This document shows, piece after piece, positions 1,046 through 21,688 of a DNA stretch of 24,000 nucleotides. Positions within the stretch are counted from its first letter, which is position 1. Each line of letters begins with the position of its first letter. Made by a program: the position numbers and the translations under genes. The notes under the pieces are model-generated. The model had not been told where the DNA came from. It did not search any database and worked only from the letters and a program-made list of their open reading frames with translations. The stretch is from Nocardioidaceae bacterium (lineage in GTDB: Bacteria; Actinomycetota; Actinomycetes; Propionibacteriales; Nocardioidaceae): the NCBI GenBank assembly GCA_030655315.1, contig JAURVT010000053.1, forward strand, positions 11,917 through 35,916. Reading direction: 5' to 3'.

Positions 1046-1055
1046 GTCCCCATTG

Positions 1056-5933: not shown

Positions 5934-5943
5934 GGCCCGCCGC

Positions 5944-7541: not shown

Positions 7542-7601
7542 CCCCCCGGGCCCGACCGGAATACCACAGCACGACCCGAGCACCATGACTCAAGGAGCAC
7601 A

Positions 7602-10592
7602 GTGAGCGACGGACCCGCGGCAGGTTTCCCCCGGCAGGCGCCTCCGCCAGCGTCCCAGCACCGGCGACGCGTCCTGATCCCCACCCTGATCACGCTCGCC
7701 GCCCTGCTGTTCCTCGGCGCGGTGTTCACCGGGGTGTGGACCGACCGCCTGTGGTTCCGGTCGGTCGGGTTCGCCTCGGTCTACCGGACGATGCTCACGA
7801 CCCGCGTCGTGATGTTCCTGGTGTTCGGGCTCGTGTTCGCCGTCGTGGTGGTCGCCAACATCGTCATCGCGTACCGCACGCGGCCGCTGACGATGGCCCA
7901 GCTCGACCGCTCCGACCCGGTCATGCGCTACCGCCAGGCGATCGACCCCCTGCGCAGGATCGCGCTCGTGGGGCTCGGCCTGCTGCTCGCGGTGTTCGCC
8001 GGCTCGGCCGCGGCGGGCCAGTGGCGCACCTTCCAGATGTGGCGCAACGGCGTCCCGTTCGGCGAGCGCGACCCGCAGTTCGGCCGGGACGTGGGCTTCT
8101 ACGTCTTCGACCTGCCCTGGATCAACTTCGTCGTCTCGTTCGGCTTCGCGCTGCTCATCGTCACCGGCATCTCGGTGCTGCTGGTGCACTACGTCTACGG
8201 CGGCATCTCGCTGCAGCCGCGCGACCGACGCATCTCCCGCGCCGCCACCGTGCACCTGTCGATCATCATCGGCCTGGGCATGCTGCTGCGGGCGCTCGGC
8301 TACTACCTCGACCGCTTCGGCTTCATGAACGGCGACACCGGCCTGATCGACGGCCCGACGTTCACCGACGTCAACGCACGCATCCCGAGCAAGAACATCC
8401 TGATCGTCATCGCGATCATCTGCGCGCTGCTCTTCTTCGCCAACGTGATCCGCCAGACGCTGCTGCTGCCGGCGATCGGCCTGGGCATGCTGCTCCTCTC
8501 GGCGATCCTGATCGGCGGCATCTGGCCGGCGGTCATGCAGTCGTTCCAGGTGCGCCCGTCCGAGCCGGACAAGGAGGCGCCGTACATCGGGCGGAACATC
8601 GAGGCGACGCGCGACGCGTACAACGTCGCCGACACGCAGAAGACCAACTACACGGGCAGCACGACGCTGACGCCCACCGAGCTGACGCAGTCGGCGGAGT
8701 CGCGGGTGTCCACCCGTCTGCTCGACCCGACGCTCGTCTCGCCGGCGTTCCAGCAGCTGCAGCAGGTGCGTGGTTACTACACCGTGCCCGAGACGCTCGA
8801 CGTCGACCGCTACCAGCTGCCCGGCAGCGACATCGCGCAGGACATCGTCATCGCGGCCCGCGAGCTCAACCTCGACGGCCTGCAGGAGAGCCAGCGCAAC
8901 TGGGCCAACGACCACACGGTCTACACCCACGGCTACGGCGTCATCGCCGCACGCGGCAACCAGCGCGGCGACCAGGGCCAGCCGGTCTGGGTCGAGCGCG
9001 ACATCCCGCCCACGGGCGACCTCGACATCCGGACCCCGCCGCGGATCTACTTCGGCGAGAACTCCCCGACCTACTCGGTCGTCGGGCGTCCTGACGGCGC
9101 GGCGCCGATCGAGGTCGACATCCCGCGCGGTGGGGGCAGCGACGACCAGACGGCGTCGGAGGCGGCGGCCACGCAGAACACCTACGACGGCAAGGGCGGC
9201 GTCCCGGTCGGCGGTCTGTTCAACAAGCTGCTCTACGCGATCAAGTTCTCCGAGCCCAACATCGTCCTCTCGAGCCGCGTCAACGAGGCGTCCAAGATCC
9301 TCTACGACCGCCACCCCCGCGACCGCGTCAACAAGGTCGCCCCGTGGCTGACGGTCGACGGCGACCCCTACCCGGCGGTCGTCGGCGGGCGCGTCGTGTG
9401 GATCGTCGACGGCTACACCACCAGCAACGCCTACCCGTACAGCCAGAAGGTGTCGCTCGACGAGGCCACCTCCGACACCCTCACCCAGGGCGGCGCGCAG
9501 GTGCGTCTGCCCTCGGACGAGGTCAACTACATGCGCAACTCGGTGAAGGCCGTGGTGGACGCGTACGACGGCTCGGTCGACCTCTACCAGTGGGACGAGG
9601 ACGACCCGATCCTCAAGACGTGGATGAAGACGTTCCCGGGCACCGTGCAGCCCAAGGCCGAGATCGGCGACGACCTCCTCCAGCACCTGCGCTACCCGGT
9701 CGACCTGTTCAAGGTGCAGCGCGAGATGCTGTCGCGCTACCACGTCACCGACGCCCAGACGTTCTACGAGGACGGTGAGCGCTGGGAGGTCCCGACCGAC
9801 CCGGCCGGCACGGCGGACTCCAAGCAACCGCCGTACTACCTCTCGGTCACGCAGCCCACGCAGCCCGACGACGGGCCGAAGTTCAGCCTCACGAGCGTCT
9901 ACCTGCCCAACAACCGCGAGAACCTCGCGTCGTACGTGTCGGTGAACTCCGAGGCCAGCGACACCGAGAACTACGGCAAGCTGGAGATCCTGCAGCTCAA
10001 CGCGGACACCCAGGTGGACGGCCCCAGCCAGATCGCCAACAAGTTCAACGCCGACCCCGGCGTCAGACAGGCGCTCCTGCCGTTCACGCAGAGCTCGGGC
10101 ACGTCGGTGGAGTACGGCAACCTGCTGACGCTTCCGGTCTCCGACGCCCTGCTGTACGTGCAGCCGGTCTACGTCCGACGCAACAGCGCGTCCGGCACGT
10201 TCCCGGTGCTCCAGTACGTGGTCGCGTCCTTCGGCGACAGCGTCGGGTACGGGCAGTCGCTGGACGAGGCGCTGCGCGTCGCGCTCGGCCTGCAGCCGGG
10301 TGACGACTCCGGGGCCGACACGACCGGGGGCGACACCGGTGGTGACAGCGGCGACGACTCCGGCGACGCCGGGGGAGGCGCGACCGGTGAGAACCAGACC
10401 ACCGACCAGCTCCTCACCCAGGCCTCGGAGGAGTACGACGCGGCCCAGACGGCGCTCGCCGACGGCGACCTGTCGGAGTACCAGGAGCGCATCGACGCGA
10501 TGAACGACCTGGTGCGCCGCGCACAGGCCACCCTCGGGTCGGCGGCTACCCCGTCGGCCTCGGCCACCCCGTCGGCCGACGGCGGCAGCTGA
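7602..10592 (+). CDS. UPF0182 family large polytopic membrane protein (Rv3193c-like)
   Basis: 996 aa. GTG start preceded by AAGGAG (7592-7597). Multiple N-terminal TM helices are followed by a large soluble domain (…HTVYTHGYGVIAARGN…, …WIVDGYTTSNAYPYSQ…, …LRYPVDLFKVQREML…). Has a low-complexity Asp/Gly/Ser tail. Confidence 0.9.
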   Translation: MSDGPAAGFPRQAPPPASQHRRRVLIPTLITLAALLFLGAVFTGVWTDRLWFRSVGFASVYRTMLTTRVVMFLVFGLVFAVVVVANIVIAYRTRPLTMAQLDRSDPVMRYRQAIDPLRRIALVGLGLLLAVFAGSAAAGQWRTFQMWRNGVPFGERDPQFGRDVGFYVFDLPWINFVVSFGFALLIVTGISVLLVHYVYGGISLQPRDRRISRAATVHLSIIIGLGMLLRALGYYLDRFGFMNGDTGLIDGPTFTDVNARIPSKNILIVIAIICALLFFANVIRQTLLLPAIGLGMLLLSAILIGGIWPAVMQSFQVRPSEPDKEAPYIGRNIEATRDAYNVADTQKTNYTGSTTLTPTELTQSAESRVSTRLLDPTLVSPAFQQLQQVRGYYTVPETLDVDRYQLPGSDIAQDIVIAARELNLDGLQESQRNWANDHTVYTHGYGVIAARGNQRGDQGQPVWVERDIPPTGDLDIRTPPRIYFGENSPTYSVVGRPDGAAPIEVDIPRGGGSDDQTASEAAATQNTYDGKGGVPVGGLFNKLLYAIKFSEPNIVLSSRVNEASKILYDRHPRDRVNKVAPWLTVDGDPYPAVVGGRVVWIVDGYTTSNAYPYSQKVSLDEATSDTLTQGGAQVRLPSDEVNYMRNSVKAVVDAYDGSVDLYQWDEDDPILKTWMKTFPGTVQPKAEIGDDLLQHLRYPVDLFKVQREMLSRYHVTDAQTFYEDGERWEVPTDPAGTADSKQPPYYLSVTQPTQPDDGPKFSLTSVYLPNNRENLASYVSVNSEASDTENYGKLEILQLNADTQVDGPSQIANKFNADPGVRQALLPFTQSSGTSVEYGNLLTLPVSDALLYVQPVYVRRNSASGTFPVLQYVVASFGDSVGYGQSLDEALRVALGLQPGDDSGADTTGGDTGGDSGDDSGDAGGGATGENQTTDQLLTQASEEYDAAQTALADGDLSEYQERIDAMNDLVRRAQATLGSAATPSASATPSADGGS

Positions 10593-10628
10593 CGACGCCG
10601 CGATCGAGCACGGCCGCGACCACGCGGT

Positions 10629-10671
10629 GAGGGGCGCGAGGCCCGGGGACGACCCCGGCCTCGCGCCCCTC
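10629..10671 (+). terminator. GC-rich stem-loop terminator after the UPF0182 gene
   Basis: GAGGGGCGCGAGGCC(C)GGGG-ACGA-CCCCGGCCTCGCGCCCCTC forms a ~19-bp stem with one bulge, 37 nt after the stop codon. There is no U-tract, which is common in high-GC actinobacteria. Confidence 0.6.
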
Positions 10672-10686
10672 GTGCGTCCGGCACCC

Positions 10687-10716
10687 TTGCCATGTATCCA
10701 GAATCCTGGATATTGT
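10687..10716 (+). promoter_or_regulatory. Candidate sigma-A promoter with palindromic operator for the yhf-like operon
   Basis: -35 TTGCCA (10687-10692), 18-nt spacer, -10 TATTGT (10711-10716). The spacer contains the perfect palindrome TATCCAG-AATC-CTGGATA (10695-10712). The -10 ends 7 nt before ATG 10724, so the transcript may be leaderless. The patch is locally AT-rich within GC-rich DNA. Confidence 0.5.
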
Positions 10717-10723
10717 TCGGTAC

Positions 10724-11647
10724 ATGCCCAGCACCGAGCCCCGCGACCGGCTGATGTCGCGCGTCGGGATCGCGGCGCAGCGGCTCGCCCGTGACCTCGG
10801 GACCCTCGCCGCGGGGGACCGGCTGCCCCGGGTGCAGGACGCCGCCGCGGCCCTCGGGTGCGGCAACGGCACCGTGCAGGCGGCGCTCGAGCTGCTCCAG
10901 GACGCGGGCGCGATCACGCTGCGACCGCGGGGACGGCTCGGGACCTTCCTCGACGCGGTCGACCACCGGGTCCTCTGGGAGCTGGCCGGCAACCGGACCG
11001 TGTCCGTGGCGATGCCGCTGCCGTACTCGCGTCGCTACGAGGGGCTGGCGACCGGCCTGCAGGAGGCCTTCGTCGAGTCCGGCGTGCCGCTCTCGCTGAT
11101 GTTCATGCGCGGCGCCGAGACCCGCGCCGTCGCGGTCGCCGAGGGGCGGGCCGACCTCGCCGTGATGTCCGGCCTGGTCGCCGGGGACCGTCCCGACCTG
11201 GTGGTCGTGCGCGACTTCGGCGCCGGCAGCTACGTCAGCAGCCACGGGCTCGTGGTCGCCCGCGGGCGCGACCCGCACGACCCCGGGCTCCGCGTGGCCG
11301 TCGACCAGTCGTCCGCGGACCAGGTCGAGCTCACCCGCCGCCACTTCGGCGACCTCGACCCGGCCCGCGTGGTCGAGGCCTCGTACAACCAGCTCGACCG
11401 GTACTTCGCGACCGGGCGCATCGACGCGACGATCTGGAACCTCGACGAGATCGAGGTGCACATCACCTCGCCGATCGACACCTACCCGGTCGCCGACGTC
11501 GTCGGCGGTGCCAACACCCGCGCCGTCATCGTCGCGCCCGCCGCGGCCCCGCCCACCTCGTGGGTCGTGCTCGACGCGCTGGCCGCCGAGTCCGTCGCGA
11601 CCAGTGCCGCCGCCGTGCTCAGCGGCGAGCGCATCCCCAGCTACTAG
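10724..11647 (+). CDS. yhfZ: YhfZ-family regulator (N-terminal GntR-like HTH + C-terminal periplasmic-binding-protein-like domain)
   Basis: N-terminus ...AAGDRLPRVQDAAAALGCGNGTVQAALELLQDAGAITLRPRGRLGTFL is a winged-HTH pattern. It is followed by ...VSVAMPLPYSRRYEGLATGL..., as I recall for YhfZ. Context with the other seven yhf families supports the call. An alternative start is ATG 10754. Confidence 0.7.
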   Translation: MPSTEPRDRLMSRVGIAAQRLARDLGTLAAGDRLPRVQDAAAALGCGNGTVQAALELLQDAGAITLRPRGRLGTFLDAVDHRVLWELAGNRTVSVAMPLPYSRRYEGLATGLQEAFVESGVPLSLMFMRGAETRAVAVAEGRADLAVMSGLVAGDRPDLVVVRDFGAGSYVSSHGLVVARGRDPHDPGLRVAVDQSSADQVELTRRHFGDLDPARVVEASYNQLDRYFATGRIDATIWNLDEIEVHITSPIDTYPVADVVGGANTRAVIVAPAAAPPTSWVVLDALAAESVATSAAAVLSGERIPSY

Positions 11648-11655
11648 GAGCCCTG

Positions 11656-12036
11656 ATGGACGACCAGCTGCGCGCGCGGCTCGACGTGTACCGGCAGATG
11701 CCCGACGTCCCGGATGGCGTCGTCGACCTCGTGGCCGACGAGCTGGACCGGCTCGCCGGCGACCACGACGTCACGGACGACAGCGCGGGGATGCTCACCT
11801 CGCACCTCGTGACGGCGCTCGCCCGGATGGCGAGCGGGGCCCCCGACGTGGAGGCACCCGATGCCGGCGTCGTCGCCCGTGCGGTGGCCGACGTGCCAGG
11901 CGCCGACGAACGCGCGGCCGCGGTGTCGGCCCGCGCCGCCGAGCACCTCGGCACCGCCCTCACGCCGACCGAGCAGCAGTACCTCACCCTCCACCTCGCC
12001 ACCCTGGCGATCACCTCGTCGAAGGAGAAGTCATGA
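11656..12036 (+). CDS. yhfY: YhfY-like PRD-domain protein
   Basis: 126 aa. ATG preceded by GGAG with a 5-nt spacer. Helical protein with ...MLTSHLVTALARM... and ...EQQYLTLHLATL... His-containing helices typical of PRD modules. Size and position fit YhfY. In the track it is embedded in the longer frame 10858..12036. Confidence 0.6.
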   Translation: MDDQLRARLDVYRQMPDVPDGVVDLVADELDRLAGDHDVTDDSAGMLTSHLVTALARMASGAPDVEAPDAGVVARAVADVPGADERAAAVSARAAEHLGTALTPTEQQYLTLHLATLAITSSKEKS

Positions 12037-12386
12037 AGATCATCGCCGGAGGAGTGGCCAAGAGCGAGGTCGTCGACGCGTTGCGTCCCCTGCTCGGACC
12101 GGACGACACGGTCGTCGCGGGCACCGACATGGACGCGGCCCTGAAGCTGCGCACGGGCGCCGTCGACTACTACCTCGGTACCTGCCACACCGGTGCGGGC
12201 GCGAGCCTGGGGGTGCTGGTGGGCCTGCTGGGCAGCGCGCGCTGCCACACCTTCGGCCGCTCGGTGCCCACGCGTGACGACGTCGAGGCGGTCGTCGCGG
12301 CCGACAAGGTCGCGCTCGGGTTCGCGCTCGACCAGGTCCAGGAGGTCGTGCCGGTCGTCTGGTCCGTCCTCGACGCCCGTCGCTGA
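12033..12386 (+). CDS. yhfU: YhfU-like DUF2620 protein
   Basis: 117 aa. ATGA overlap with yhfY, and an AAGGAG upstream. MKIIAGG...DMDAALKLRTGAVDYYLGTCHTGAGASLGV... matches my memory of the YhfU core (..DYYIGACNTGAGAAL..). Confidence 0.7.
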   Translation: MKIIAGGVAKSEVVDALRPLLGPDDTVVAGTDMDAALKLRTGAVDYYLGTCHTGAGASLGVLVGLLGSARCHTFGRSVPTRDDVEAVVAADKVALGFALDQVQEVVPVVWSVLDARR

Positions 12387-12395
12387 GGAGCCCCC

Positions 12396-13796
12396 ATGAC
12401 CCCCACCAGCCTGGCCACCGCGGCCCAGACCTCGGTCCACTTCGAGGTCTGGCAGTCCGTCGTCGTCATCGTCACCTGCGTCGTCGCCGCCGTGATCGCC
12501 CACCAGGCGCTCGCGGTGTTCAACGACGGCGCTCGCCCGTTCCTGCTCGACTACATCCAGGGCCGGACGACGCGGCTCGCGACCGCCACGATCGTCTTCG
12601 GCCTGTCCGCCGGGTTCATCTTCGGTCTCGGTGCGCCGATGGCGCTGTCGACCGGCGTGCTCAACCCGTGGCTCGTCTTCCTGCCGGTGGAGATCCTCGG
12701 CCTGCTCGCGCCGTTCCGCTGGCTGGCCGCGCTCGCGGGCGCGGCCTGGGGTGCGGTGTGCGCCTTCGGGCTGAGCGCGGCCAACTCGCTGGCCACCGGG
12801 CTGCCGGTCGACTTCATCACCGCGCTCCAGCAGATCTCGACACCGATCCTGTGGCTGTTCGCGATCTTCCCGGTGATCGCGGTCGCGCGGCAGTTCGACC
12901 GGCCGAAGGCCCTGGCCACCTTCGGCGTCGAGATCGTCGTCATCGTCGCCGCGGCCAAGTGGATCCCGACCGTGTTCGGAGGCTCGCTCGCCCTGGCTGT
13001 CGGCGTCATCATGCTGATGGCCTTCGCCGTGCAGAAGGACCGCCGCGACCGCGTCCGAGAGCGCGCCGAGCTGGCCTCGCAGGGCGAGGAGGCCCGGCGG
13101 GCCGCCGACGAGGCACGCGCGGCGAACGCGGAGATCACCGACGAGCTGTTCGGGCCCAACGCCGACCGGCTGCGACGCAACGTCGTGTGGTTCGCGCTGC
13201 TGGGCGGCGTGGTCTGCGCGCTCGCGTCCACCGGGATCTTCGGCGGTGGCGAGGCCACGAGCTTCCTGCTGTCGGACGGCAAGCTGGCCGAGGCGGCGCA
13301 GGTCGACTTCTACCGGGTGTTCGGGTTCATCCCGCTGATCGCGACGACGGCGCTCGCCTCGGGTGCGTACGCCATGGCGGGGTTCACGCTCGTCTACCCG
13401 ATCGGGTACCTGTCGGCGCTGCTGATCGAGCCCTGGCCGATCGCCCTCGGCGTCGCCTTCGTGCTCGGTGCGGCGATGATGACCGCCGAGGTGCTCGCCC
13501 TGAGCGCCGTCGGCCGGTGGCTGCAGCACTGGCCGTCGATCCGCGACTCCGCGGACCACATCCGCAGCGCGATCACCGAGGCGCTGACGCTGGCGATCCT
13601 CGTCGGCTCCCTGATGGCCGCCCTCGCCATGGGAGGCGGGATCGGGATCGCCATGGTCGGTGGGCTCTACCTGCTGAACGAGTCGCTGGGTCGGCCGGTG
13701 GTTCGGATGGCGGCCGGCCCGGCGGCGGTGATCGTCGTCGGCATCGCGCTCAACCTGCTGAACCTCGTGGGGCTGTTCACCCCCGTGGCGGGCTGA
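12396..13796 (+). CDS. yhfT: YhfT-like polytopic membrane protein (putative transporter)
   Basis: 466 aa with about 10-12 hydrophobic segments and a central charged loop (QKDRRDRVRERAELASQGEEARRAADEARAANAE). GGAG sits 5 nt upstream of the ATG. The context between the yhfU and php homologues supports the call. Confidence 0.65.
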   Translation: MTPTSLATAAQTSVHFEVWQSVVVIVTCVVAAVIAHQALAVFNDGARPFLLDYIQGRTTRLATATIVFGLSAGFIFGLGAPMALSTGVLNPWLVFLPVEILGLLAPFRWLAALAGAAWGAVCAFGLSAANSLATGLPVDFITALQQISTPILWLFAIFPVIAVARQFDRPKALATFGVEIVVIVAAAKWIPTVFGGSLALAVGVIMLMAFAVQKDRRDRVRERAELASQGEEARRAADEARAANAEITDELFGPNADRLRRNVVWFALLGGVVCALASTGIFGGGEATSFLLSDGKLAEAAQVDFYRVFGFIPLIATTALASGAYAMAGFTLVYPIGYLSALLIEPWPIALGVAFVLGAAMMTAEVLALSAVGRWLQHWPSIRDSADHIRSAITEALTLAILVGSLMAALAMGGGIGIAMVGGLYLLNESLGRPVVRMAAGPAAVIVVGIALNLLNLVGLFTPVAG

Positions 13797-13797
13797 G

Positions 13798-14724
13798 ATG
13801 GCGACCGTCCGCACCGTCGAGGGCCCGCTCGACCCCGCCGAGGTCACCGGTCCGGTGCTGCCGCACGAGCACCTCGCGATCGACCTGCGCACCGAGGACG
13901 ACGCCGAGGCCCGGGTCACCGACCGGCTCGCGGTCGTCGACGAGCTCCGCGCGGCGCGCGAGTCGCACGGCCTCGGACTGGTGGTCGACCAGACCTGCCG
14001 GGGGATGGGACGGGACCCGCGCGCCCTCGTGGCGATGTCGCGGGCTGCCGGCGTGCCGGTCGTGGCGTCGACCGGCTACTACTGGCACCGCTTCCACCCC
14101 GCGGGCGAGCTCGACCACGACGTCGAGGCAGTGACGGCCCGGCTCGTGCACGAGATCCGGCACGGCCTCGACGGCACGGACGTCCGTCCCGGCGTCGTCG
14201 CCGAGGTGGGAAGCCACGGCGCCGAGCCGTCGCCCGCCGAGCGCACCAGCCTCCTCGCGGCCGGGCACGCCGCCGCGGAGACGGGCCTGTCGGTGGGCAC
14301 GCACGCCCACCTCGGCGAGGGCGGCCCGGGACAGCTGGAGCTGCTCGTCTCGACCGGTATGCGGCCCGAGCGGGTGTGCGTCGGGCACCAGGACCTCGCC
14401 GACGACACCGCCCAGCACCTCGCGATCGCCGAGGCGGGCGCGTTCGTCGCCTTCGACACCGTCGGCAAGGAGTCCTACCAGCCGGACGCGGTCAGGCTCG
14501 GTCTGCTGCTCGCGCTGCTGGAGGCCGGTCACGCGGGGCAGGTGCTGCTGAGCAACGACGTCTCGCGCGACCGCTACCTCCTCGCGCACGGCGGGCCCGG
14601 CCTCGGGCACGTCCTCGGCACCTTCAGCGACCTGCTCCGCGGGGCGGGCGTCGACGAGGGCACCCTGGACCTGCTGCGCCGTCGCAACCCGCTGCGCTGG
14701 CTGACGGGGGAGGAGGTCGCGTGA
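13798..14724 (+). CDS. php: Phosphotriesterase-homology protein (Php/YhfV), amidohydrolase-superfamily binuclear metal hydrolase
   Basis: 308 aa. N-terminal metal motif GPVLPHEHLAIDL (HxH). Later His and Asp ligand candidates occur in GTHAHLGEG, VGHQDL and LLSNDVSRD. This is the typical PTE-family layout. Confidence 0.85.
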   Translation: MATVRTVEGPLDPAEVTGPVLPHEHLAIDLRTEDDAEARVTDRLAVVDELRAARESHGLGLVVDQTCRGMGRDPRALVAMSRAAGVPVVASTGYYWHRFHPAGELDHDVEAVTARLVHEIRHGLDGTDVRPGVVAEVGSHGAEPSPAERTSLLAAGHAAAETGLSVGTHAHLGEGGPGQLELLVSTGMRPERVCVGHQDLADDTAQHLAIAEAGAFVAFDTVGKESYQPDAVRLGLLLALLEAGHAGQVLLSNDVSRDRYLLAHGGPGLGHVLGTFSDLLRGAGVDEGTLDLLRRRNPLRWLTGEEVA

Positions 14725-15839
14725 CCCGGCCAGCCCTGCCGTCCACCGCGCCGCTCCCGGCCACCGACCTCGACCAGGCGTTCGCCCTCCAGCAGCGCCT
14801 CGTGGCCGGGGTGGCCGAGGCCTTCCCCGACGGGGCCATGTTCCGCGCCGACGTCGGCGTGGTGCCCGGGCTCGGGCGCCCCGAGACCACCGCACGTGCC
14901 GAGCGCGTCCTCGCGGCGGCGTTCGACGCACCCGCCGCCTGCCTGGTGCAGGGCGCGGGGACGGCGGCGATCCGCACCGCGCTGTCGGCCGGGCCGTGGG
15001 CCGAGGGCGACCGGCGGCTGCTGCTCCACGACGCCCCCGACTACTCCACCACCGCCACGACGCTGTCGGACGGGGCCGTCACGGCCGTGCGCGTCGACCT
15101 CGACGACGCCGCGGCGCTCGACGAGGCGCTCGCCGACCCCGACGGCCCCGCCTGGGTCTTCGTCCAGCACACGCGGCAGCGTCTCACCGACTCCTTCGAC
15201 CCCACCGCCGTCGTGGAGGCCGCCGTGCGCGCGGGCCGACGGGTGGTGGTCGACGACAACTACGCGGTGGTGCGCACGCCCACGATCGGGGTGCAGCACG
15301 GGGCGTCCGCGTCGGCGTTCTCGCTGTTCAAGCTGCACGGACCCGAGGGCGTCGGGGTCGTGCTCGGCGACCAGGACCTGGTCGAGCGCGCCCACCGGGC
15401 GAACTACTCCGGGGGCGGGCAGGTGCAGGGCGCGCAGGCGCTCGCGGCGCTGCAGGCGCTGGTGATGGTGCCGCTGAACTGGGCGGTCCAGGCCCGCGAG
15501 ACCCGGCGGGTGGCCGAGCGCCTCGCCGCCGGTGAGGTGCCCGGCGTCGTCGACGCCGTGCTCGCCAACGCCCAGGACCTCTGCGTGCTGGCGCTGCTCG
15601 ACGAGCCCGTGGCCGCCGACCTGCCTGCGCGCGCGGCGTCGGTCGGAGCCGCACCCTTCCCGGTCGGCTCGAACTCCCGGCACGAGATCACCCCGATGGT
15701 CTACCGGCTGTCGTCCTCGACCCTCGCGGGCCGGCCGGACCTGCGCGACTGGGCCGTCCGGGTCAACCCGATGCGCGGGGGCGCGGACCTGACGATCGAC
15801 CTGCTCCGGCGCGCGCTCGACCGGGGCGGGGTGTCCTGA
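14721..15839 (+). CDS. yhfS: YhfS-like fold-type-I PLP-dependent enzyme (aminotransferase/lyase-like)
   Basis: GTG 14721 overlaps the php stop (GTGA) and follows GGAGGAGG. Motifs are VQGAGTAAIRTAL..., DDNYAV..., and SAFSLFKLHGPEG with a candidate PLP lysine in an S-x-x-K context. Lies in track frame 14376..15839. Confidence 0.65.
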   Translation: MTRPALPSTAPLPATDLDQAFALQQRLVAGVAEAFPDGAMFRADVGVVPGLGRPETTARAERVLAAAFDAPAACLVQGAGTAAIRTALSAGPWAEGDRRLLLHDAPDYSTTATTLSDGAVTAVRVDLDDAAALDEALADPDGPAWVFVQHTRQRLTDSFDPTAVVEAAVRAGRRVVVDDNYAVVRTPTIGVQHGASASAFSLFKLHGPEGVGVVLGDQDLVERAHRANYSGGGQVQGAQALAALQALVMVPLNWAVQARETRRVAERLAAGEVPGVVDAVLANAQDLCVLALLDEPVAADLPARAASVGAAPFPVGSNSRHEITPMVYRLSSSTLAGRPDLRDWAVRVNPMRGGADLTIDLLRRALDRGGVS

Positions 15840-17014
15840 TGTTCCTCCCGGTGACCGAGCGTCGGAACCCGGCCCTGGTGGACGCCGCACTCGACCTCCA
15901 CGCCGCCGGGGAGATCGAGGCCGACACCTACGTCGTCGACCTCGACACCGTCGACGCCAACGCCCGGGCGCTGGCCGAGACGGCCGCCGCGTCGGACGTC
16001 GGGCTGTGGTTCGTGGCCAAGCAGTACGGACGGAACCCGCTCGTGACCGCGGCGGTCGCCGCCCACGTGCCGGCCGCCGCCGCGATCGACGTCCGGGAGG
16101 TCGACGGCCTGGTGACGGCGGGCGCGCGCGTCGGCAACGTCGGCCACATCACCCAGGTGCCGGTGCGTCGCCTGCCCGGCGTCCTGCGCCACGAGCCCGA
16201 CTTCGTCACCGTCTTCGACCGCGGCAACCTCGAGGCGGTGGCGGCCGCGTCCGAGGACGTCGGTCGGGTGCAGCGGGTGCTGCTCAAGATCGCGAGCGAT
16301 CCCGCCGGCGTCTACCCCGGTCAGGAGGGCGGGTTCGAGGTGGCGGACGTGCGGGGCGTCCTCGAGCACGCCGACGCGCTGCCCGGCGTCGACGTCGTCG
16401 GCGTGACGGGGTTCCCGTGCCTCCTGCTCGACCCGACGATCGGCAGGCCGGTCGGAACCGCGACGCTCGACCGCGTCCTGGCCGCCGCGGAGGTCCTGCG
16501 GGACGCGGGCATCACCCCCGAGATCAGCCTGCCGAGCCACAGCAGCGTCTCGACGATCCCGGTGGTGGCGGGCCTCGGCGGCACCTGGGCCGAGCCCGGC
16601 CACGCGCTGACGGGCACGACGCCCGAGCACGTCCTGCGCGACGACCTGCGGGAGGTGCCGGCCCTGGTCTACGTGTCGGAGGTGGCGCAGCTCGGGGGGA
16701 GCACGAGCGTGTTCGGCGGCGGGTTCTACCCGCGGGGTCGGGCCGAGTCGGTGCTCGTCGCGTGCGCGGACGGCCGGAGGCGGGGCCGGCTGCTCGACGC
16801 CCCCGCCGAGAACATCGACTACTACCGCCGGTTCACCTGGACCGGTGACGGGCCGGCCGCCCGGGTGGGCGACCCCGCCGTGATGGCCTTCCGGACCCAG
16901 GTGTTCGTCACCCGCTCGCGGGTGGCCGTCGTGTCCGGCGTGTCGTCCGGACGTCCGGTGGTGCGGGGCCTGTTCGACAGCCAGGGACGCCGGCTGGACG
17001 GCGAGCCCGGGTGA
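15839..17014 (+). CDS. yhfX: YhfX-like fold-type-III PLP enzyme (alanine-racemase N-terminal domain family)
   Basis: 391 aa. The start overlaps the yhfS stop by 1 nt (TGATG). LWFVAKQYGRNP holds a candidate PLP lysine in a racemase-like VxK context. The TIM-barrel-like region is followed by a C-terminal beta domain. Confidence 0.7.
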   Translation: MFLPVTERRNPALVDAALDLHAAGEIEADTYVVDLDTVDANARALAETAAASDVGLWFVAKQYGRNPLVTAAVAAHVPAAAAIDVREVDGLVTAGARVGNVGHITQVPVRRLPGVLRHEPDFVTVFDRGNLEAVAAASEDVGRVQRVLLKIASDPAGVYPGQEGGFEVADVRGVLEHADALPGVDVVGVTGFPCLLLDPTIGRPVGTATLDRVLAAAEVLRDAGITPEISLPSHSSVSTIPVVAGLGGTWAEPGHALTGTTPEHVLRDDLREVPALVYVSEVAQLGGSTSVFGGGFYPRGRAESVLVACADGRRRGRLLDAPAENIDYYRRFTWTGDGPAARVGDPAVMAFRTQVFVTRSRVAVVSGVSSGRPVVRGLFDSQGRRLDGEPG

Positions 17015-18231
17015 GCGCCACCGTCCTCGTCCTCGACGGCTTCGGCGTGGGGGCGATGCCCGACGCAGGCGCGCTCCGGCCGTCCGACGCCGGGGCCGAC
17101 ACCCTCGGCCACCTCGTGCGCTGGTGCGCCGACGAGCGAGGCGAGCCCCTGCGCGTCCCGCACCTGGCGTCCTGCGGGCTCGACGCGCTGCGTCCCGACC
17201 TGCGGCTCGACACCACGGGCGGGGCGGCGGTGCGGGCCGTGGCCCGGCGGGCGGCCCTGGGGTATCCCGGCGCCGACAGCTTCGCCGGTCACCAGACGAT
17301 GATGGGGGCGGACCTGTCGCACGTGGCGCTGAGCCGGGTGGGGGAGTGTCTGGACGAGGTGGTGGACGCGCTCGAGCGGGCGGGGCACCGGTGCCGGTTG
17401 CTCGACGGCCGTCCGCTCGTCGTCGTCGACGACCACCTGCTCCTGCACGACAACCTCGAGGCCGACCCCGGCCTGAACTGGAACGTCTCGGCGAGCCTGG
17501 ACGAGGTGTCGTGGGAGGCGGTCGTCGACGTCGCCACCGTGGCGCGCCGGGTGGCACCGGTGGCGCGCGTGATCGCGGTCGGCGGGCACTCCCAGGCACC
17601 CCTGGTGCGGGCGGTCCGCGACGGCGCGGAGGGGACGGTCGGCCTCGACACCCCCGCGAGCGGCTTCTACCGCAACGGTGGTCTCCGGGTGCAGCACATG
17701 GGCGTCGCGATCGACCACGCCCAGCAGCTGCCCGAGCTGGCGGCCAGGTCGGGCCTGGGCGTCACGCTGCTCGGGAAGGCGGCCGACCTCCTGGTGACCG
17801 ACACCGAGGTGCACCGGGTGCCGGGGGTCGACACCACCGAGCTGCTGGCGGCCACCACGACCGCCGTCGCCGGCGGCGGGCTCGTCGTGGCCAACGTCCA
17901 GCAGACCGACCTCGCCGGGCACCAGCGCGACCCGGGTCGCTTCGCCGCCCTGCTGGAGGAGGTCGACGCCGCGATTCCGGCGATGCTGGCGCACCTCGCC
18001 CCGGCGGACCTGCTCGTCGTCACCGCCGACCACGGCAACGACCCCACCGCCGGCCACGCCTTCCACACCCGCGAGCACGCGCCGGTGCTGGCCGTCGTCC
18101 CCGGGCGGGGACCGGCCCGCGCGGCCACCGACCTGCCGACCCTGGCCGACGTCGGCGGAGGCGTCGCCCGCCATCTCGGGCTGGACGTCTCCCGCCTCGG
18201 CAACGGCCGCGGCGTCGTCCTGCTCGGCTGA
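17011..18231 (+). CDS. yhfW: YhfW-like phosphopentomutase/metalloenzyme-superfamily (alkaline-phosphatase fold) mutase
   Basis: 406 aa. GTGA overlap with yhfX. N-terminal VLVLDGFGVGAMPDA and C-terminal DLAGHQRD...LLVVTADHGNDPT...HTREHAP are the DeoB-type metal-binding motifs. Confidence 0.75.
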   Translation: MSATVLVLDGFGVGAMPDAGALRPSDAGADTLGHLVRWCADERGEPLRVPHLASCGLDALRPDLRLDTTGGAAVRAVARRAALGYPGADSFAGHQTMMGADLSHVALSRVGECLDEVVDALERAGHRCRLLDGRPLVVVDDHLLLHDNLEADPGLNWNVSASLDEVSWEAVVDVATVARRVAPVARVIAVGGHSQAPLVRAVRDGAEGTVGLDTPASGFYRNGGLRVQHMGVAIDHAQQLPELAARSGLGVTLLGKAADLLVTDTEVHRVPGVDTTELLAATTTAVAGGGLVVANVQQTDLAGHQRDPGRFAALLEEVDAAIPAMLAHLAPADLLVVTADHGNDPTAGHAFHTREHAPVLAVVPGRGPARAATDLPTLADVGGGVARHLGLDVSRLGNGRGVVLLG

Positions 18232-18262
18232 GCCGTGTGGCTCATGTCTCCCCGGTGCCGAT

Positions 18263-18292
18263 TTGGTGACGCGCAGGTGTACCGCGTACTGT
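18263..18292 (+). promoter_or_regulatory. Candidate promoter of the tRNA gene
   Basis: TTGGTG (18263-18268), 18-nt spacer, TACTGT (18287-18292), ending 12 nt upstream of the mature tRNA 5' end. Motif match only. Confidence 0.3.
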
Positions 18293-18304
18293 GGTGATCA
18301 CCGA

Positions 18305-18381
18305 CGCGGGGTGGAGCAGCTCGGTAGCTCGCTGGGCTCATAACCCAGAGGTCACAGGTTCAAATCCTGTCCCCGCTACCA
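18305..18381 (+). tRNA. Initiator tRNA-Met (tRNA-fMet, anticodon CAU) with encoded CCA
   Basis: 77-nt cloverleaf folded by hand. Acceptor CGCGGGG/CCCCGCT with a C1xU72 mismatch. D arm GAGC-AGCTCGGTA-GCTC. Anticodon stem CTGGG/CCCAG with three consecutive G:C pairs next to the loop CTCATAA. T arm ACAGG-TTCAAAT-CCTGT. Discriminator A followed by CCA. The 1:72 mismatch and the GGG/CCC anticodon stem are initiator hallmarks. Confidence 0.93.
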
Positions 18382-20179
18382 AGAATGATTCGTTAGAACC
18401 TCGGACCTTTGAAGGTCCGGGGTTCTTTCGTTCCCATGGGAGGGCGCCTCTGGGGCGTTCGAGGCCCAAGAATGCGCGCAGACGGTCGCCGGGCGTCGTC
18501 CTGGTGGACCGAGGCGCCAGGTCCTTTGACCCGTTCGAGTCACCCCTGTCGGCCGATTCGGTGACCTCTGGCATGAGGAATAGGTCACTGGTTCTAACGA
18601 GACGCTTCTGCTCACGTCGCCGCTCGTTGGCTAGATCATCGACCAGAGCCGGAGACATGAGCCTCTGGAAGGCACCGGTCAGGTCGCTGCCCACCACTTC
18701 GTCGTCGTCGATGTAGATGTGCTCGAAGACCCCTTGGTTCAGTTCGCGTCGGATCGTGTCGGAGGCGTTCGCGTAGTGCTCGTGGGCACTCGTCAATAAT
18801 TCGCAGCACTCCAGCAGCTTCTGTTGAAGCCGTTCGGTTGGGGTGGCGGCTTGCTTCAGCTTGTGTTCGGCCAGCGCTCGTCGCCCCGCGATGCGCTGCT
18901 GCTCGCTCTTCAGCTGATCTAGCGCGATGGCATCTGCGTAGTGAGCCTGCAGCAGCTTCTGGCTCTGACTCTCCAATTCTCGTAGTTCCCTCTCGGCTGC
19001 CATCCGCTCGGCCTCGACTTGTGGTGTCACTGTGTCGATGTGCTCGAGGACAAGCTCCCGGATTCGCTGTACTGAGGCGCGGCTCAAGGTGATCGTGCGC
19101 CAGTGGTCTTCCACCAGTTGCTCGACGAGGTGCACTTGGGTGGCGCGGAAGGTGCATCCGTTCTTCTGGCGTTGGCGGCCGAGGCAGTAGAAGTAGTCGT
19201 AGAGGTCGCCGCGGGCGTTGCGGCTCTTCTCGTAGGCGAGCGGTTCGCCGCATTGGCCGCAGTAGACGGACCCCTTGAGGTACACGCTGTGTACTCGGGG
19301 CTTCTCTCCGCTCTGGTGTCGGGCCTCCCGAATCTGTTGAACACGAGCGAACTGCTCCTCGGAGACGAGGGCTTCGTGCTTGCCCCGATATTCGACGCCG
19401 CCGTACACCACCACGCCCACGTAGTAGCGGTTCTTCAGGATGCTGTTGACGTGTGACGTGGCGATGGGTCGCGCCGGTCGGTTGGGTCGAGGAAGCGTCG
19501 TGACTCCGTACAGGTTGAGTTCGTCGCGAATGGACGCCGCGGTGGAGTTCCCCTCGGTGTACCGATCGAAGATCCAACGAACCCAGCGGGCGCGCTCAGG
19601 GTCGAGAACGACGGTGCGTACCTCTCGACCATCAGCGGTACGTTCGCGCGAGTTGAGGTAACCGAACGGAGCCATGCCTGGAGTGCCACCACCCTTGGCC
19701 TTCTGCAGCATGCCCTTCTTGGACTCCGTCGCGAGATTCTGGCTGTAGAACTCTGCGATCGAGCTCATGATCCCGTGCAAGAGCATGCCGCTGGGCGTCT
19801 CGTCGATGTTTTCCGAACAACTGACGAGCTGCGAGCCTGCCTGAGTGATCTGCAGATTGATCTCAACGTCATCGACACGGTTGCGTGCGAGGCGATCGAC
19901 CTTGTGGACGATGACGTACTTGACTCGGTGCTTAGCCACGTAATCCAGCATGTTCTTCAACTGGGGGCGGTTTGCCGAGCGTGCGCTCTCGCCAGCGTCG
20001 ACGAATTCACCGACGACTTGGGCTCCCAAGGCTTGGGCTTTGCGGAGGCAGCCGTCACGTTGCGCCGGGATCGAAAACCCTTCCACCTCGCCGCCGCGTC
20101 CGGCCTGCTCCTTGGTGCTCACACGGAGGTAGATCACTGCCATCGGCATGACGGTCATCTCCGGGGCCGGATTGCTCAT
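18338..20179 (-). CDS. Large serine recombinase (resolvase/invertase catalytic domain + recombinase domain + zinc ribbon + coiled coil)
   Basis: Start at ATG 20179 (MSNPAPEMTVMPMAVIYLRVSTKEQ...), preceded by AAGGAG and overlapping the ImmA stop (ATGA). Catalytic Ser lies in YLRVSTKEQ, followed by VIVHKVDRLARN. The recombinase domain has PFGY...VLDPERARWVRWIF, the zinc ribbon has CGQCGEPL...YFYCLGRQRQKNGC, and a coiled-coil segment follows. The track ORF (18338..20683) is extended 168 codons upstream through the ImmA gene, and I reject that extension. The last ~100 codons are unconserved-looking and run through the tRNA terminator into the tRNA antisense strand. Confidence 0.9.
   Translation of the reverse strand: MSNPAPEMTVMPMAVIYLRVSTKEQAGRGGEVEGFSIPAQRDGCLRKAQALGAQVVGEFVDAGESARSANRPQLKNMLDYVAKHRVKYVIVHKVDRLARNRVDDVEINLQITQAGSQLVSCSENIDETPSGMLLHGIMSSIAEFYSQNLATESKKGMLQKAKGGGTPGMAPFGYLNSRERTADGREVRTVVLDPERARWVRWIFDRYTEGNSTAASIRDELNLYGVTTLPRPNRPARPIATSHVNSILKNRYYVGVVVYGGVEYRGKHEALVSEEQFARVQQIREARHQSGEKPRVHSVYLKGSVYCGQCGEPLAYEKSRNARGDLYDYFYCLGRQRQKNGCTFRATQVHLVEQLVEDHWRTITLSRASVQRIRELVLEHIDTVTPQVEAERMAAERELRELESQSQKLLQAHYADAIALDQLKSEQQRIAGRRALAEHKLKQAATPTERLQQKLLECCELLTSAHEHYANASDTIRRELNQGVFEHIYIDDDEVVGSDLTGAFQRLMSPALVDDLANERRREQKRLVRTSDLFLMPEVTESADRGDSNGSKDLAPRSTRTTPGDRLRAFLGLERPRGALPWERKNPGPSKVRGSNESFLVAGTGFEPVTSGL
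18396..18432 (+). terminator. Intrinsic terminator downstream of the tRNA
   Basis: GAACC(T)CGGACC-TTTGAA-GGTCCG(G)GGTTC followed by TTTCGTT. This is a stem-loop plus T-rich tail, 15 nt after the CCA end. Confidence 0.7.
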
Positions 20180-20835
20180 GCATAGCTCCTTCGGTTGAGC
20201 CCGTTGCGGGCGTAACGGAATCGTTGAGGGCGAGATCGAGGGCCGCGGATAGGGCGAGCGCATCGGGGTGCGGGAAGTCGATCTACGTCGGTGTCGAGGC
20301 CGGTCTGTGCCAGTCGGACACGGATGGCTTGCTCGCTGACATGGAAGTGGGAGGCCAGCAGGGATGGTCGCTGTAAGCCGTTGCCCCACGCGCTCTTGAG
20401 CTCTCGCTTGCTCACGAGTGCGCAACCGGCGAAATAGTCGGCGGCGAGTTCGGCCTGCTCCTGTGCGCTCTTGGATCGGTTGGTTCGGTAGAGGCGCTGG
20501 ACTGAACCGTGGTCGATGATGTGCTTGAACTCGTGCAGCAGCGTGAAGCGCTGGCGAGCGGGAGCATCGTGGGAGGCGATCGCGATCAGCCACTCGGTGC
20601 CTGTCCAGTGGCTCATGCCGCTGACGGGCAGATCGGTCTCGAAGACGACGCGGACGCGGGGGAGCCCATCGATGTGGTGCCACCGGATGCCGTCGCTGTG
20701 ATCCTCAACCAGAAGTTCAGCGACTCGCGTTGCCTGTCGCTCGGCAACCACCAGGGCTTCCCCGAACGTGCAGTCGCGGGCTGGGATGAGCGAACGGAGG
20801 CGCTTCAGGATAGATGGTGATGTTGATTGATTCAT
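20176..20835 (-). CDS. ImmA/IrrE-family HEXXH metallopeptidase
   Basis: 219 aa. Motif FTLLHEFKHIIDH (HEXXH), with a downstream EQAELAADYFAGCALV (E..AN.FA-like) motif typical of ImmA/IrrE. AAGGAGG lies 6 nt upstream of the ATG. The gene sits immediately downstream of an XRE HTH gene. Confidence 0.85.
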   Translation of the reverse strand: MNQSTSPSILKRLRSLIPARDCTFGEALVVAERQATRVAELLVEDHSDGIRWHHIDGLPRVRVVFETDLPVSGMSHWTGTEWLIAIASHDAPARQRFTLLHEFKHIIDHGSVQRLYRTNRSKSAQEQAELAADYFAGCALVSKRELKSAWGNGLQRPSLLASHFHVSEQAIRVRLAQTGLDTDVDRLPAPRCARPIRGPRSRPQRFRYARNGLNRRSYA

Positions 20836-20865
20836 GGTGCGCCTCCTTTCAGTGTGGCTGGTGTG

Positions 20866-21249
20866 TTATTCGTCTTCGCCGGGATTTGGTCCGGCTTCCG
20901 ACATGCCGTAGCGCTCAGCAATGCGCGTGAACGAAGCTGCGAGCTCGGATTGCGCTTCGGGGGGGAGCTGGGAATATTTGCTCCGGAGGTATGGGCTGAA
21001 GGTCGGCAATCCCTGAGCAGGTACATAGCCGGCTGCTGTGTAGAGGTCGATTAGCTCTACGTCCAGAGTGGACGCGAGCGAATTGAGGACGTGGGGGTTC
21101 GGAGATGCGACGTTGTCCTGCTCCATGTTGCCCAGCAGAGACTTCGAGATCCCTGTCTCCGCCTCAACTTCGCGCAAACTCAATCCCGCAGCTTCTCGTG
21201 CTCGTTTGAGAAGTTGTCCGAATGTGGTTGCTGTCGATTCGTCGGTCAT
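20866..21249 (-). CDS. XRE-family helix-turn-helix transcriptional regulator (ImmR-like)
   Basis: FGQLLKRAREAAGLSLREVEAETGISKSLLGNMEQD is a classic Cro/C1 HTH. The start is either ATG 21249 (MTDESTATT...) or ATG 21276, which gives 9 extra AT-rich codons. I prefer 21249 but cannot decide. Confidence 0.85.
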   Translation of the reverse strand: MTDESTATTFGQLLKRAREAAGLSLREVEAETGISKSLLGNMEQDNVASPNPHVLNSLASTLDVELIDLYTAAGYVPAQGLPTFSPYLRSKYSQLPPEAQSELAASFTRIAERYGMSEAGPNPGEDE

Positions 21250-21368
21250 GTGATTAGGTAGTCCATATTTATTCAATCGTCTATATCTATTCTAATTCAT
21301 TTGTCCCAATTTGGGGACAGGAAATCCAATTCCACAACACAGAGCATTTCTCGATAAGTTGTAGTTGT

Positions 21369-21410
21369 GGGGCGGGAGTCGAACGGCAGAACGCCGCCCA
21401 ACTCCCGCCC
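21369..21410 (-). terminator. Strong GC-rich hairpin after the RHH gene (probable terminator separating two operons)
   Basis: GGGCGGGAGT-(22 nt with an inner GGC/GCC pairing)-ACTCCCGCCC is a perfect 10-bp outer stem, 15 nt downstream of the RHH stop on the minus strand. There is no U-tract. Confidence 0.5.
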
Positions 21411-21424
21411 TGGTGGAGGTGCTG

Positions 21425-21688
21425 TCAGCTGCTCTTGGCTCGCCCGCGAGCGGCAGGCTTGGTGCCGAAGAGTTGCGCGATAGCTGCATGCTGCTCGGCG
21501 GCCTCACGCTCGATCGTGGCGGTGAGCTCCTCGGCCTTGGCCGAGAGCTCGGGGTTGGTCGCCATCGAGTCGAGTTGCCGCTCAACCGCGGAACGGATGA
21601 CGTCCGTCACCGATTCGCCACTGAGCTTCGCCAGGATGTTGAGTCGAGCATGCTGCTCGTCTTCCAGCCGGATTGCCAGAGTCTTCAT
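21425..21688 (-). CDS. Ribbon-helix-helix (CopG/Arc/MetJ-like) DNA-binding protein
   Basis: MKTLAIRLEDEQHARLNILAKLSGESVTDVIRSAVERQL shows the beta-strand/helix/helix RHH pattern (hydrophobic-polar alternation, then two helices). Alternative start is ATG 21700 (MQVVMK...), directly abutting GAGAGGAG. The track ORF 21425..22408 is over-extended through the ArdA gene. Confidence 0.6.
   Translation of the reverse strand: MKTLAIRLEDEQHARLNILAKLSGESVTDVIRSAVERQLDSMATNPELSAKAEELTATIEREAAEQHAAIAQLFGTKPAARGRAKSS

Follow-up and report, generated by a model that had tools for sequence, protein, structure and literature searches.

What compound does the yhf/php gene cluster handle, and what can its copies outside Escherichia coli tell about it? 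The question is raised by a stretch of 24,000 nucleotides from a Nocardioidaceae bacterium, a soil-type actinobacterium (contig JAURVT010000053.1), hereafter the window, in which positions 10724-18231 are a genuine eight-gene yhf/php cluster, orthologous to E. coli yhfZY plus yhfXW-php-yhfUTS. On balance, we lean slightly towards the reading that the cluster would break down an amino-sugar-type compound via phosphorylated intermediates, as a substrate-inducible catabolic operon with a PRD protein linked to the phosphotransferase system (PTS). Its features are as follows, with protein lengths in amino acids (aa) and pyridoxal phosphate abbreviated as PLP.

10724-18231, plus strand: yhf/php operon, eight genes in the order yhfZ-yhfY-yhfU-yhfT-php-yhfS-yhfX-yhfW
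10724-11647, plus strand: yhfZ, 307 aa, GntR-type winged-helix regulator with a binding-protein-like C-terminal domain
11656-12036, plus strand: yhfY, 126 aa, stand-alone single PRD domain protein
12033-12386, plus strand: yhfU, 117 aa, DUF2620 protein with an RpiB/LacAB-like predicted fold
12396-13796, plus strand: yhfT, 466 aa, polytopic membrane protein, presumed permease
13798-14724, plus strand: php, 308 aa, phosphotriesterase-family binuclear-metal amidohydrolase
14721-15839, plus strand: yhfS, 372 aa, fold-type I PLP enzyme
15839-17014, plus strand: yhfX, 391 aa, alanine racemase-like fold-type III PLP enzyme
17011-18231, plus strand: yhfW, 406 aa, phosphopentomutase-like member of the alkaline-phosphatase superfamily

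All eight families are contiguous on one strand, as the initial annotation of this DNA had claimed. When the translations were searched with profile hidden Markov models (Pfam, NCBIfam), seven of the eight matched the expected families, and the same seven are 32-42% identical to their E. coli K-12 counterparts over nearly their full length (BLASTP). YhfY was recovered only by profile comparison (hhalign). The distances between genes were recomputed and are identical to those on which translational coupling had been proposed: in order, +8 (with GGAG), -4 (ATGA), +9 (GGAG), +1, -4 (GTGA), -1 (TGATG) and -4 (GTGA). The window is high in GC, 0.68-0.77 up to about 18000, and GC content at the third codon position is 0.92-0.98 in all eight genes with about 0.5 at the second position, which is the signature of real coding sequence in high-GC genomes.

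In E. coli K-12, yhfZ-yhfY and yhfX-yhfW-php-yhfU-yhfT-yhfS (b3376-b3383) likewise hold all eight families on one strand. The Php metal ligands, the PLP lysines and the gene pairs Z-Y, U-T and X-W are common to both clusters. On the other hand, the order is Z-Y-U-T-php-S-X-W in the window and Z-Y-X-W-php-U-T-S in E. coli, in agreement with the order first given for the latter, and the window cluster differs in having a single, probably leaderless promoter with a palindromic putative operator.

Gene order was compared across loci taken from a YhfT genome scan (n = 80), a metagenome scan (n = 80), ten exact-protein look-ups and two plasmid records. The eight families were mapped on about 170 loci (numbered with the prefix L; the E. 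coli locus is L001) of Actinomycetota, Chloroflexota, Bacillota, Fusobacteriota and Gammaproteobacteria. The same families are kept in at least six arrangements. Three adjacencies are nearly invariant, with counts of 160 for U-T (160 of 160 U-T cases), 125 for X-W and 115 for Z-Y. Several lineages dispense with yhfS. Some variants in high-GC loci, such as U-php-T, were rejected as real rearrangements, being artefacts of sorting overlapping stop-to-stop open reading frames (ORFs).

The order Z-Y-U-T-php-S-X-W is found in every Actinomycetota locus, in two Ktedonobacteria loci (L018 and L030; the other five are shortened, with no Y or W detected) and, among Bacillota, in Bacillus sp. 37MA, Harryflintia, Brevibacillus and Alicyclobacillus. 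Other arrangements are Z-Y-U-T-php-X-W in Clostridium butyricum, Z-Y-php-U-T-X-W in Vibrio tapetis, Z-Y-php-U-T-amidase-S-X-W in Sebaldella, Z-Y-U-T-amidase-php-S-X-W in Cetobacterium, S-X-W-Y-U-T-php in Thermoanaerobacterium and Z-U-T-php-Y-X-W in Vallitaleaceae, and the cluster is split into two divergent halves in Coprothermobacter. The E. coli order is confined to Enterobacterales among the mapped loci. Thus, the window copy had been called reshuffled, and its order does differ from that of E. coli, but it is the E. coli arrangement that is lineage-specific and in the minority. Because the same families persist through different orders across phyla, the cluster appears to be one functional unit, in agreement with the argument first made from two orders only.

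Two loci, labelled Pseudomonas lundensis (L070) and Serratia proteamaculans (L075), hold only php-yhfU-yhfT, an arrangement that suggests a minimal three-gene module. In the former, an IclR-family regulator gene lies 5′ of the three genes; this 'Pseudomonas' contig includes sequence resembling that of Serratia, perhaps through a wrong label or a recent transfer. Plasmid carriage was considered as the vehicle of the cluster and rejected, as only six plasmid records matched, three of which are chromosome-size E. coli records (4.8-4.9 Mb) filed under plasmids. The remaining ones are large replicons of 0.24-0.70 Mb, so the cluster is rarely on plasmids.

Expression of the window operon would start immediately 5′ of yhfZ, at the following elements.

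10687-10716, plus strand: sigma-70-like promoter, with -35 element TTGCCA at 10687-10692 and -10 element GATATT or TATTGT ending at 10714 or 10716
10695-10712, no strand assigned: 18-bp palindrome TATCCAGAATCCTGGATA with perfect arms, overlapping the promoter spacer and the -10 element

This is the only sigma-70-like match within 10400-18500, where shuffled sequences are expected to give about none, and the region is one operon from promoter to end. The ATG of yhfZ (10724) lies 8-10 nucleotides past the -10 element and has no Shine-Dalgarno sequence; because it is so close to the -10 element and lacks that sequence, the yhfZ transcript is probably leaderless.

The palindrome is unique in the window, and 0 of 100 shuffles matched it at up to 2 mismatches. 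Its consensus, ATCCAG-N4-CTGGAT, occurs with at most 2 mismatches just 5′ of yhfZ in about 25 loci of Actinomycetota and Ktedonobacteria (Chloroflexota), with a second copy 5′ of yhfY in Streptomyces loci L017 and L021. It was not found in the E. coli locus at up to 2 mismatches. Since it lies inside the only promoter and recurs 5′ of yhfZ in two phyla, the palindrome is probably the operator of the GntR-type YhfZ, which would imply autoregulation.

A riboswitch or another RNA element was also considered. An Rfam scan found none in the operon or 5′ of it, only the downstream tRNA, and a riboswitch-prediction paper that lists the E. coli operon puts its hits kilobases off, so riboswitch control was rejected. 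Between the stop codon of the upstream UPF0182 gene (10592) and the yhfZ promoter, a GC-rich inverted repeat, GGGGCGCGAGGCCCGGGG-ACGA-CCCCGGCCTCGCGCCCC, is present at 10630-10668. This hairpin has no T tract and was unflagged by a simple terminator scan, and is probably an actinobacterial-style factor-independent terminator of the UPF0182 gene.

The presumed regulator passes the NCBIfam equivalog model YhfZ_full (NF041241) at 278.4 bits against a cut-off of 260. YhfZ carries the Pfam domains HTH_41 and YhfZ_C and shares 32% identity with its E. coli counterpart; in the PDB it matches 2OZZ (8e-25).

YhfY is more divergent. It had no Pfam match even at E values up to 10, none in NCBIfam and none by BLASTP against E. 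coli. It thus scores below the gathering threshold of the PRD family PF00874, and E. coli YhfY itself reaches only 20.2 bits with a cut-off of 23. Streptomyces homologues that are 41-48% identical to the window YhfY match PF00874, those at 42-48% scoring 27.5-29 bits, and hhalign joins the actinobacterial and enterobacterial YhfY families with a probability of 94% (E 8.5e-8, 111 columns). The homology of the window YhfY to enterobacterial YhfY/PRD is supported only indirectly, by these intermediates. YhfY consists of one PRD and has no domain for binding DNA or RNA. Two histidines, H50 (SHLVxAL) and H113 (YLTLHLA), are conserved across the alignment of actinobacterial and chloroflexal YhfY and may be the two phosphorylatable PRD histidines; at the second position E. 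coli YhfY has Asn, whereas the window YhfY keeps His.

As judged by alignment, the catalytic residues of the operon's enzymes are intact. Php matches Pfam PTE (PF02126) at 2e-51, and PDB 1BF6 and 4LEF (E. coli Php, its closest solved relative) at 2e-52. Its metal ligands, which we take to be those of the E. coli Php structure, are H23, H25, E136, H169, H197 and D254 and are kept in 80-81 of 81 orthologues, in accord with the binuclear-metal amidohydrolase fold that had been annotated from the HxH motif (H23/H25). As in E. coli Php, Glu stands where classical phosphotriesterase (PTE) has a carboxylated Lys. The window Php scores 200.8 bits on the equivalog model PRK09875 (NF007373), whose cut-off is 486, and is an orthologue by context rather than an NCBI-threshold equivalog. 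It shares PF02126 and the binuclear metal centre with the PTE-family proteins Lmo2620 and Bh0225, reportedly phospho-sugar lactonases; on the NCBIfam phospho-furanose lactonase model the E value is 4.6e-10 but the score is 39 bits against a cut-off of 630. The crystal structure of Php is said to date from 1998, and 4LEF presumably holds a bound phosphate. We know of no phosphotriesterase activity found for E. coli Php.

YhfS has the Pfam domains YhfS-like_C and Aminotran_5 and matches PDB 4J8L at 2e-80; Lys204 (motif SLFK) and D178 are invariant in 71 sequences. YhfX has Ala_racemase_N and YhfX-like_C and matches PDB 4KBX at 8e-73; Lys61 (motif VAKQ) is invariant in 76 sequences. Both the Pfam families and the invariant lysines agree with the two different PLP folds first annotated, and K204 of YhfS and K61 of YhfX would be the lysines that form the Schiff base with PLP.

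YhfW, annotated as phosphomutase-like, passes the phosphopentomutase model PRK12383 (NF009049) at 361.9 bits (cut-off 254) with a Metalloenzyme domain, and its D9, S90, D300, H304, D340, H341 and H352 fall on the metal-binding and nucleophile sites of E. coli DeoB when the two are aligned. Ser90 takes the place of the nucleophilic Thr of E. coli YhfW and DeoB. YhfW is below the cut-offs of canonical DeoB (TIGR01696, 103 against 341 bits; NF003766, 128 against 256 bits), and therefore a ribose-phosphate activity should not be assumed.

YhfU had been annotated as a small partner of the permease YhfT. The invariant U-T adjacency is compatible with this, but the protein is probably RpiB-like with an invariant Cys. 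Its only Pfam match is DUF2620 (3e-32), LacAB_rpiB (PF02502) being absent. The AlphaFold2 (AF2) model of YhfU has a predicted local distance difference test (pLDDT) score of 95.5, and when it was compared with the PDB by Foldseek, the top 13 matches were all RpiB (probability 0.99-1.0, template modelling (TM) score 0.57-0.69). The family profile gave weak matches to the RpiB-like PDB entries 2PPW, 3C5Y and 4U8E over the motif C-x-T-G-x-G, while hhalign of YhfU with RpiB reached only E 0.054 over 26 columns.

The invariant Cys51, in the motif C-x-T-G-x-G-x-S, aligns with Cys66 of E. coli RpiB, the catalytic Cys. Thus, YhfU and RpiB/LacAB have the same predicted fold with Cys-x-Thr-Gly-x-Gly at the catalytic position. 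At 117 aa, YhfU is 32 residues shorter than RpiB (149 aa), and lacks the N-terminal Asp-His motif (GxDHxG) and the C-terminal Arg-bearing helix, whose roles in RpiB we assume. Because it is shorter and lacks these other active-site motifs, YhfU is probably RpiB-like in fold and no more than a candidate isomerase. A PTS EIIB was rejected as the primary reading of YhfU, since Foldseek gives RpiB, with no EIIB among the best 50 PDB matches, and the Cys follows strand 3.

YhfT matches Pfam YhfT at 1e-131 (440 bits) and is 38% identical to E. coli YhfT. Its AF2 model (pLDDT 88.9; predicted TM score, pTM, 0.86) is all-helical and polytopic with a long charged central loop. Neither Foldseek of this model against the PDB (best E 0.09, TM score up to 0.24) nor a profile search of PDB sequences gave anything significant, so EIIC and other known transporter folds were rejected. 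YhfT is presumed to be a permease, and by its model its fold is not represented in the PDB.

Indications of the pathway come from genes beside the cluster in other lineages. A NagB-I glucosamine-6-phosphate deaminase gene adjoins the cluster, co-directionally, in six loci: Cellulomonas (L011), Propionicimonas (L015), three Bacillales (L086, L091 and L093) and a metagenome contig (L145). NCBIfam models were run on L011 and L086, where it is above the cut-offs; the other four were assigned by BLAST, some with Pfam Glucosamine_iso.

A double-SIS protein (GlmS-C/NagB-II-like, unrelated to NagB-I) is encoded beside the cluster in L003-L006, L009, L017 and L018. In all four Aeromicrobium loci (L003-L006) and the metagenome-assembled genome (MAG) L009, the gene is directly 3′ of yhfW, encodes 339 aa and overlaps or abuts the yhfW end, being translationally coupled to it in at least L005. 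It is beside yhfZ in Streptomyces L017 and closes the cluster in Ktedonobacteraceae L018. In L005, a DapA-type gene of the DHDPS family lies 3′ of the double-SIS gene. The Aeromicrobium loci, which are also of Nocardioidaceae and are the closest relatives of the window copy, have the window order, a YhfT about 73% identical and the same palindrome 5′ of yhfZ. They differ in this ninth gene, as the window cluster ends at yhfW followed by tRNA-Met, and their flanks are unrelated. The window operon is therefore complete relative to E. coli, as had been stated, but not relative to Aeromicrobium.

PTS genes were found beside the cluster in two loci only. In L018, a Ktedonobacteraceae MAG with the window gene order, genes for HPr, Enzyme I and the double-SIS protein directly follow yhfW (15146-18310); neither the cluster nor these three appended genes include EIIA, EIIB or EIIC, the rest of the locus not having been scanned for EII domains. 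In Vallitaleaceae L092, an Enzyme I gene follows yhfW. Genes for Cof-type HAD sugar phosphatases lie divergently 5′ of yhfZ in L084, L086 and L093, and an amidase-like gene is inserted in the cluster in L084, L085, L095 and L175.

The window holds no PTS component (Enzyme I, HPr, EIIA, EIIB or EIIC). When a deaminase, HPr and Enzyme I were sought in it by tblastn, nothing was found below E = 1, so hidden copies were rejected. The initial annotation found a PRD protein with no PTS component odd; this holds for the window, but the oddity is only local, given HPr with Enzyme I in L018 and Enzyme I in L092. The linkage makes HPr/Enzyme I a plausible phosphoryl donor for the orphan PRD protein YhfY. 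The recruitment of two non-homologous deaminase types to the same operon in three phyla is the most telling clue: it indicates a shared end product, for which hexosamine-6-phosphate, or a near relative of it like a glycated-amine 6-phosphate, is the candidate. The earlier guess of an amino- plus phospho- or ester/lactone-bearing substrate is strengthened by these accessory genes.

From these data we infer what the proteins do, that YhfZ pairs with the operator, that YhfY is phosphorylated and what kind of compound is the substrate. YhfZ would bind the 18-bp palindrome over its own leaderless promoter and repress it until effector binding releases the DNA. YhfY, which is encoded next to YhfZ in the 115 Z-Y adjacencies, may make this switch, one of the enzymes or the transporter responsive to whether HPr is phosphorylated. 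YhfT would import the amino-sugar-type compound. Php would hydrolyse an ester, lactone or amide, YhfW would move or transfer a phosphoryl group, the RpiB-like YhfU may isomerise a sugar phosphate, and YhfS and YhfX would act on the amino-bearing part. The route would end at hexosamine-6-phosphate, which a deaminase, presumably encoded elsewhere in this genome, would convert to fructose-6-phosphate for entry into glycolysis.

Several points weigh against this proposal. Of some 55 non-enterobacterial loci, only about 13 have an accessory deaminase. The SIS proteins of L005 and L018, those scanned, score 147 and 226 bits where the NagB-II equivalog cut-off is 430, and may instead act as deglycases or etherases. 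Genes for a deaminase, HPr, Enzyme I, a kinase and a phosphatase are all missing from the window, and therefore how phosphate enters its pathway is unexplained; a kinase gene is in no version of the cluster, making the phosphate source the main gap. YhfU lacks most RpiB active-site residues beyond the Cys/Thr motif. The proposed links of YhfZ to the operator and of YhfY to HPr come from position and conservation. YhfX belongs to COG3457, which we take to include ornithine racemase and which fits an amino acid at least as well as a sugar. The literature searched gave no measured substrate, intermediate or activity for any protein of the cluster.

Since no kinase is present in any cluster version, it was considered whether the phosphate could come from a non-canonical phosphoenolpyruvate (PEP)-dependent phosphotransfer system. 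Enzyme I and HPr would pass phosphate to the YhfY His, the YhfU Cys and/or the YhfW Ser/Thr, and the substrate would be phosphorylated during or just after its passage through the new-fold YhfT, standing in for EIIC. We regard such a system as unlikely. It is equally doubtful that YhfT, YhfU, YhfY and the phosphomutase-like enzyme replace EIIA/B/C or a kinase and deliver a phosphorylated amino-sugar conjugate to Php and the PLP enzymes. The invariant U-T adjacency, the lack of a DNA- or RNA-binding domain in YhfY, and the HPr and Enzyme I (L018) or Enzyme I (L092) genes appended to clusters without EIIA/EIIB/EIIC would all fit, as would the C-x-x-G-x-x-x-S loop of YhfU, a loop also typical of Cys-type EIIB proteins. 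However, YhfU resembles RpiB both in its fold and in having its Cys after strand 3, with no EIIB in its best 50 Foldseek matches, YhfT is unlike any EIIC structure, most loci including the window have no nearby PTS gene, and the known role of PRD domains is to be phosphorylated in regulation, not to relay phosphate. If the substrate is instead a non-sugar amino compound (for example a small amide, or a basic D/L-amino acid in free, lactam or lactone form), YhfX would be a racemase, YhfS an aminotransferase or lyase and Php a lactamase or esterase, with YhfW and YhfU secondary. The alanine-racemase fold of YhfX, the presumed ornithine racemase in its COG3457, the resemblance of YhfS to Cys/Met-metabolism and class V enzymes and the amidase-like gene inside the cluster in four loci (L084, L085, L095 and L175) point this way. 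We consider it improbable, as it leaves unexplained an intact phosphomutase in nearly every version, the RpiB-like YhfU, and the repeated presence of glucosamine-6-phosphate deaminases, of Cof sugar phosphatases and of HPr/Enzyme I.

Detoxification or scavenging of an organophosphate, phosphonate or phosphoester would make Php a phosphotriesterase or diesterase, YhfW an alkaline-phosphatase-type hydrolase and YhfS a PhnW-like aminotransferase. Php is indeed in the PTE family with a weak match to the OPH model, and YhfW has a weak Phosphodiest match (E 0.003) and a match to a phosphonate-pathway model. We give this only a slight chance, because Php has Glu in place of the carboxylated Lys of classical PTE, no phosphotriesterase activity of E. 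coli Php is known to us, YhfW matches phosphopentomutase far better than any hydrolase, and the annotated contexts of the cluster show no genes of phn or pst type. A biosynthetic cluster that makes a modified amino sugar or small metabolite, with YhfT as an exporter, seems to us hardly credible. Two PLP enzymes and a mutase are also found in amino-sugar biosynthesis, and some loci are near ATP-grasp genes (L174). The architecture, however, is that of a catabolic operon, with a ligand-binding GntR regulator, a putative autoregulatory operator and a PRD protein; the accessory deaminases and phosphatases would feed glycolysis, and no nucleotidyl- or glycosyl-transferases are in the cluster.

The catabolism of an amino-sugar-type compound can also be compared with known systems. 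The nag, aga and frl/gfr operons end in a hexosamine-6-phosphate deaminase, as do yhf clusters with NagB-I or the GlmS-C-type SIS protein. Several of these operons have a GntR-family repressor, like the yhf cluster, and the linkage to HPr and Enzyme I in some lineages is another likeness. In contrast, the yhf cluster has no EIIA, EIIB, EIIC, kinase or NagA-type deacetylase, and has instead a PTE-family hydrolase, two PLP enzymes, a phosphopentomutase-like enzyme, an RpiB-like protein and a permease without a PDB-matched fold. In E. coli (L001, 1269-12345), the yhf genes and the fructoselysine operon frlABCDR converge. Among E. coli proteins, the SIS deglycase encoded by frlB matches the SIS protein of L018 best (56 bits). 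This neighbourhood may be coincidence, or a hint at a glycated-amine substrate.

A function or pathway assigned to the cluster was found neither in the full text of the 7.7 million PMC papers and bioRxiv searched, where such absence is no proof, nor in RefSeq or PDB naming, in line with the orphan status first stated. The structures of YhfS, YhfX and YhfZ were solved by structural genomics; PDB titles call YhfS (4J8L) and YhfX (4KBX) 'uncharacterized' and YhfZ (2OZZ) 'hypothetical'. Because NCBI already names these families in actinobacterial genomes, the window operon joins an already known orphan cluster.

The surroundings of the operon differ on its two sides. Upstream are the following.

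7542-10592, plus strand: UPF0182
5701-6990, plus strand: PDZ/Lon_C protease
4912-5490, plus strand: MoaE
3605-5050, minus strand: Zincin_2
3000-3650, minus strand: NUDIX
2398-3069, plus strand: YgjP-like
1056-2267 and 6699-7589, both minus strand: ORFs with high third-position GC and no Pfam match

The genes at 1-10592 look like ordinary actinobacterial housekeeping genes. Near 18000, GC drops from about 0.75 to about 0.62, and downstream of yhfW are a tRNA gene and a low-GC stretch.

18305-18381, downstream of yhfW: tRNA-Met (CAT)
within 18338-20683, minus strand: large serine recombinase, in the low-GC stretch
20176-20835, minus strand: ImmA/IrrE-type M78 peptidase, in the low-GC stretch
20866-21276, minus strand: XRE-family helix-turn-helix protein, in the low-GC stretch
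within 21837-23162, minus strand: ArdA antirestriction protein, in the low-GC stretch
22405-23664, minus strand: N6/N4 DNA methylase, in the low-GC stretch

From its gene content, 18305-24000 looks like an integrated mobile element or prophage remnant that abuts tRNA-Met and runs off the window. The UPF0182 gene, the Lon-PDZ gene, the adjacent unannotated ORF and the serine recombinase gene of the window have no counterpart in L001-L081, and aragorn found no tRNA-Met in 12 actinobacterial loci. Inherited synteny with the neighbours was thus rejected, the flanking genes of the window not being common to related loci, and therefore the yhf block sits in different chromosomal contexts.

Among the orphan operons of E. 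coli, yhf/php counts as one of the better known, and the window itself adds only one more copy. What is gained is comparative: the common gene order, the putative operator, the RpiB-like YhfU, the unmatched fold of YhfT, and the associations with deaminases and with HPr/Enzyme I. YhfT is flagged as a transporter family without structural precedent, and the conserved palindrome is usable in reporter and binding assays. The substrate question is narrowed to a short set of testable candidates (amino sugars, the phosphates, lactones or lactams of these, and conjugates with amino acids), making the long-standing question of Php function more testable.

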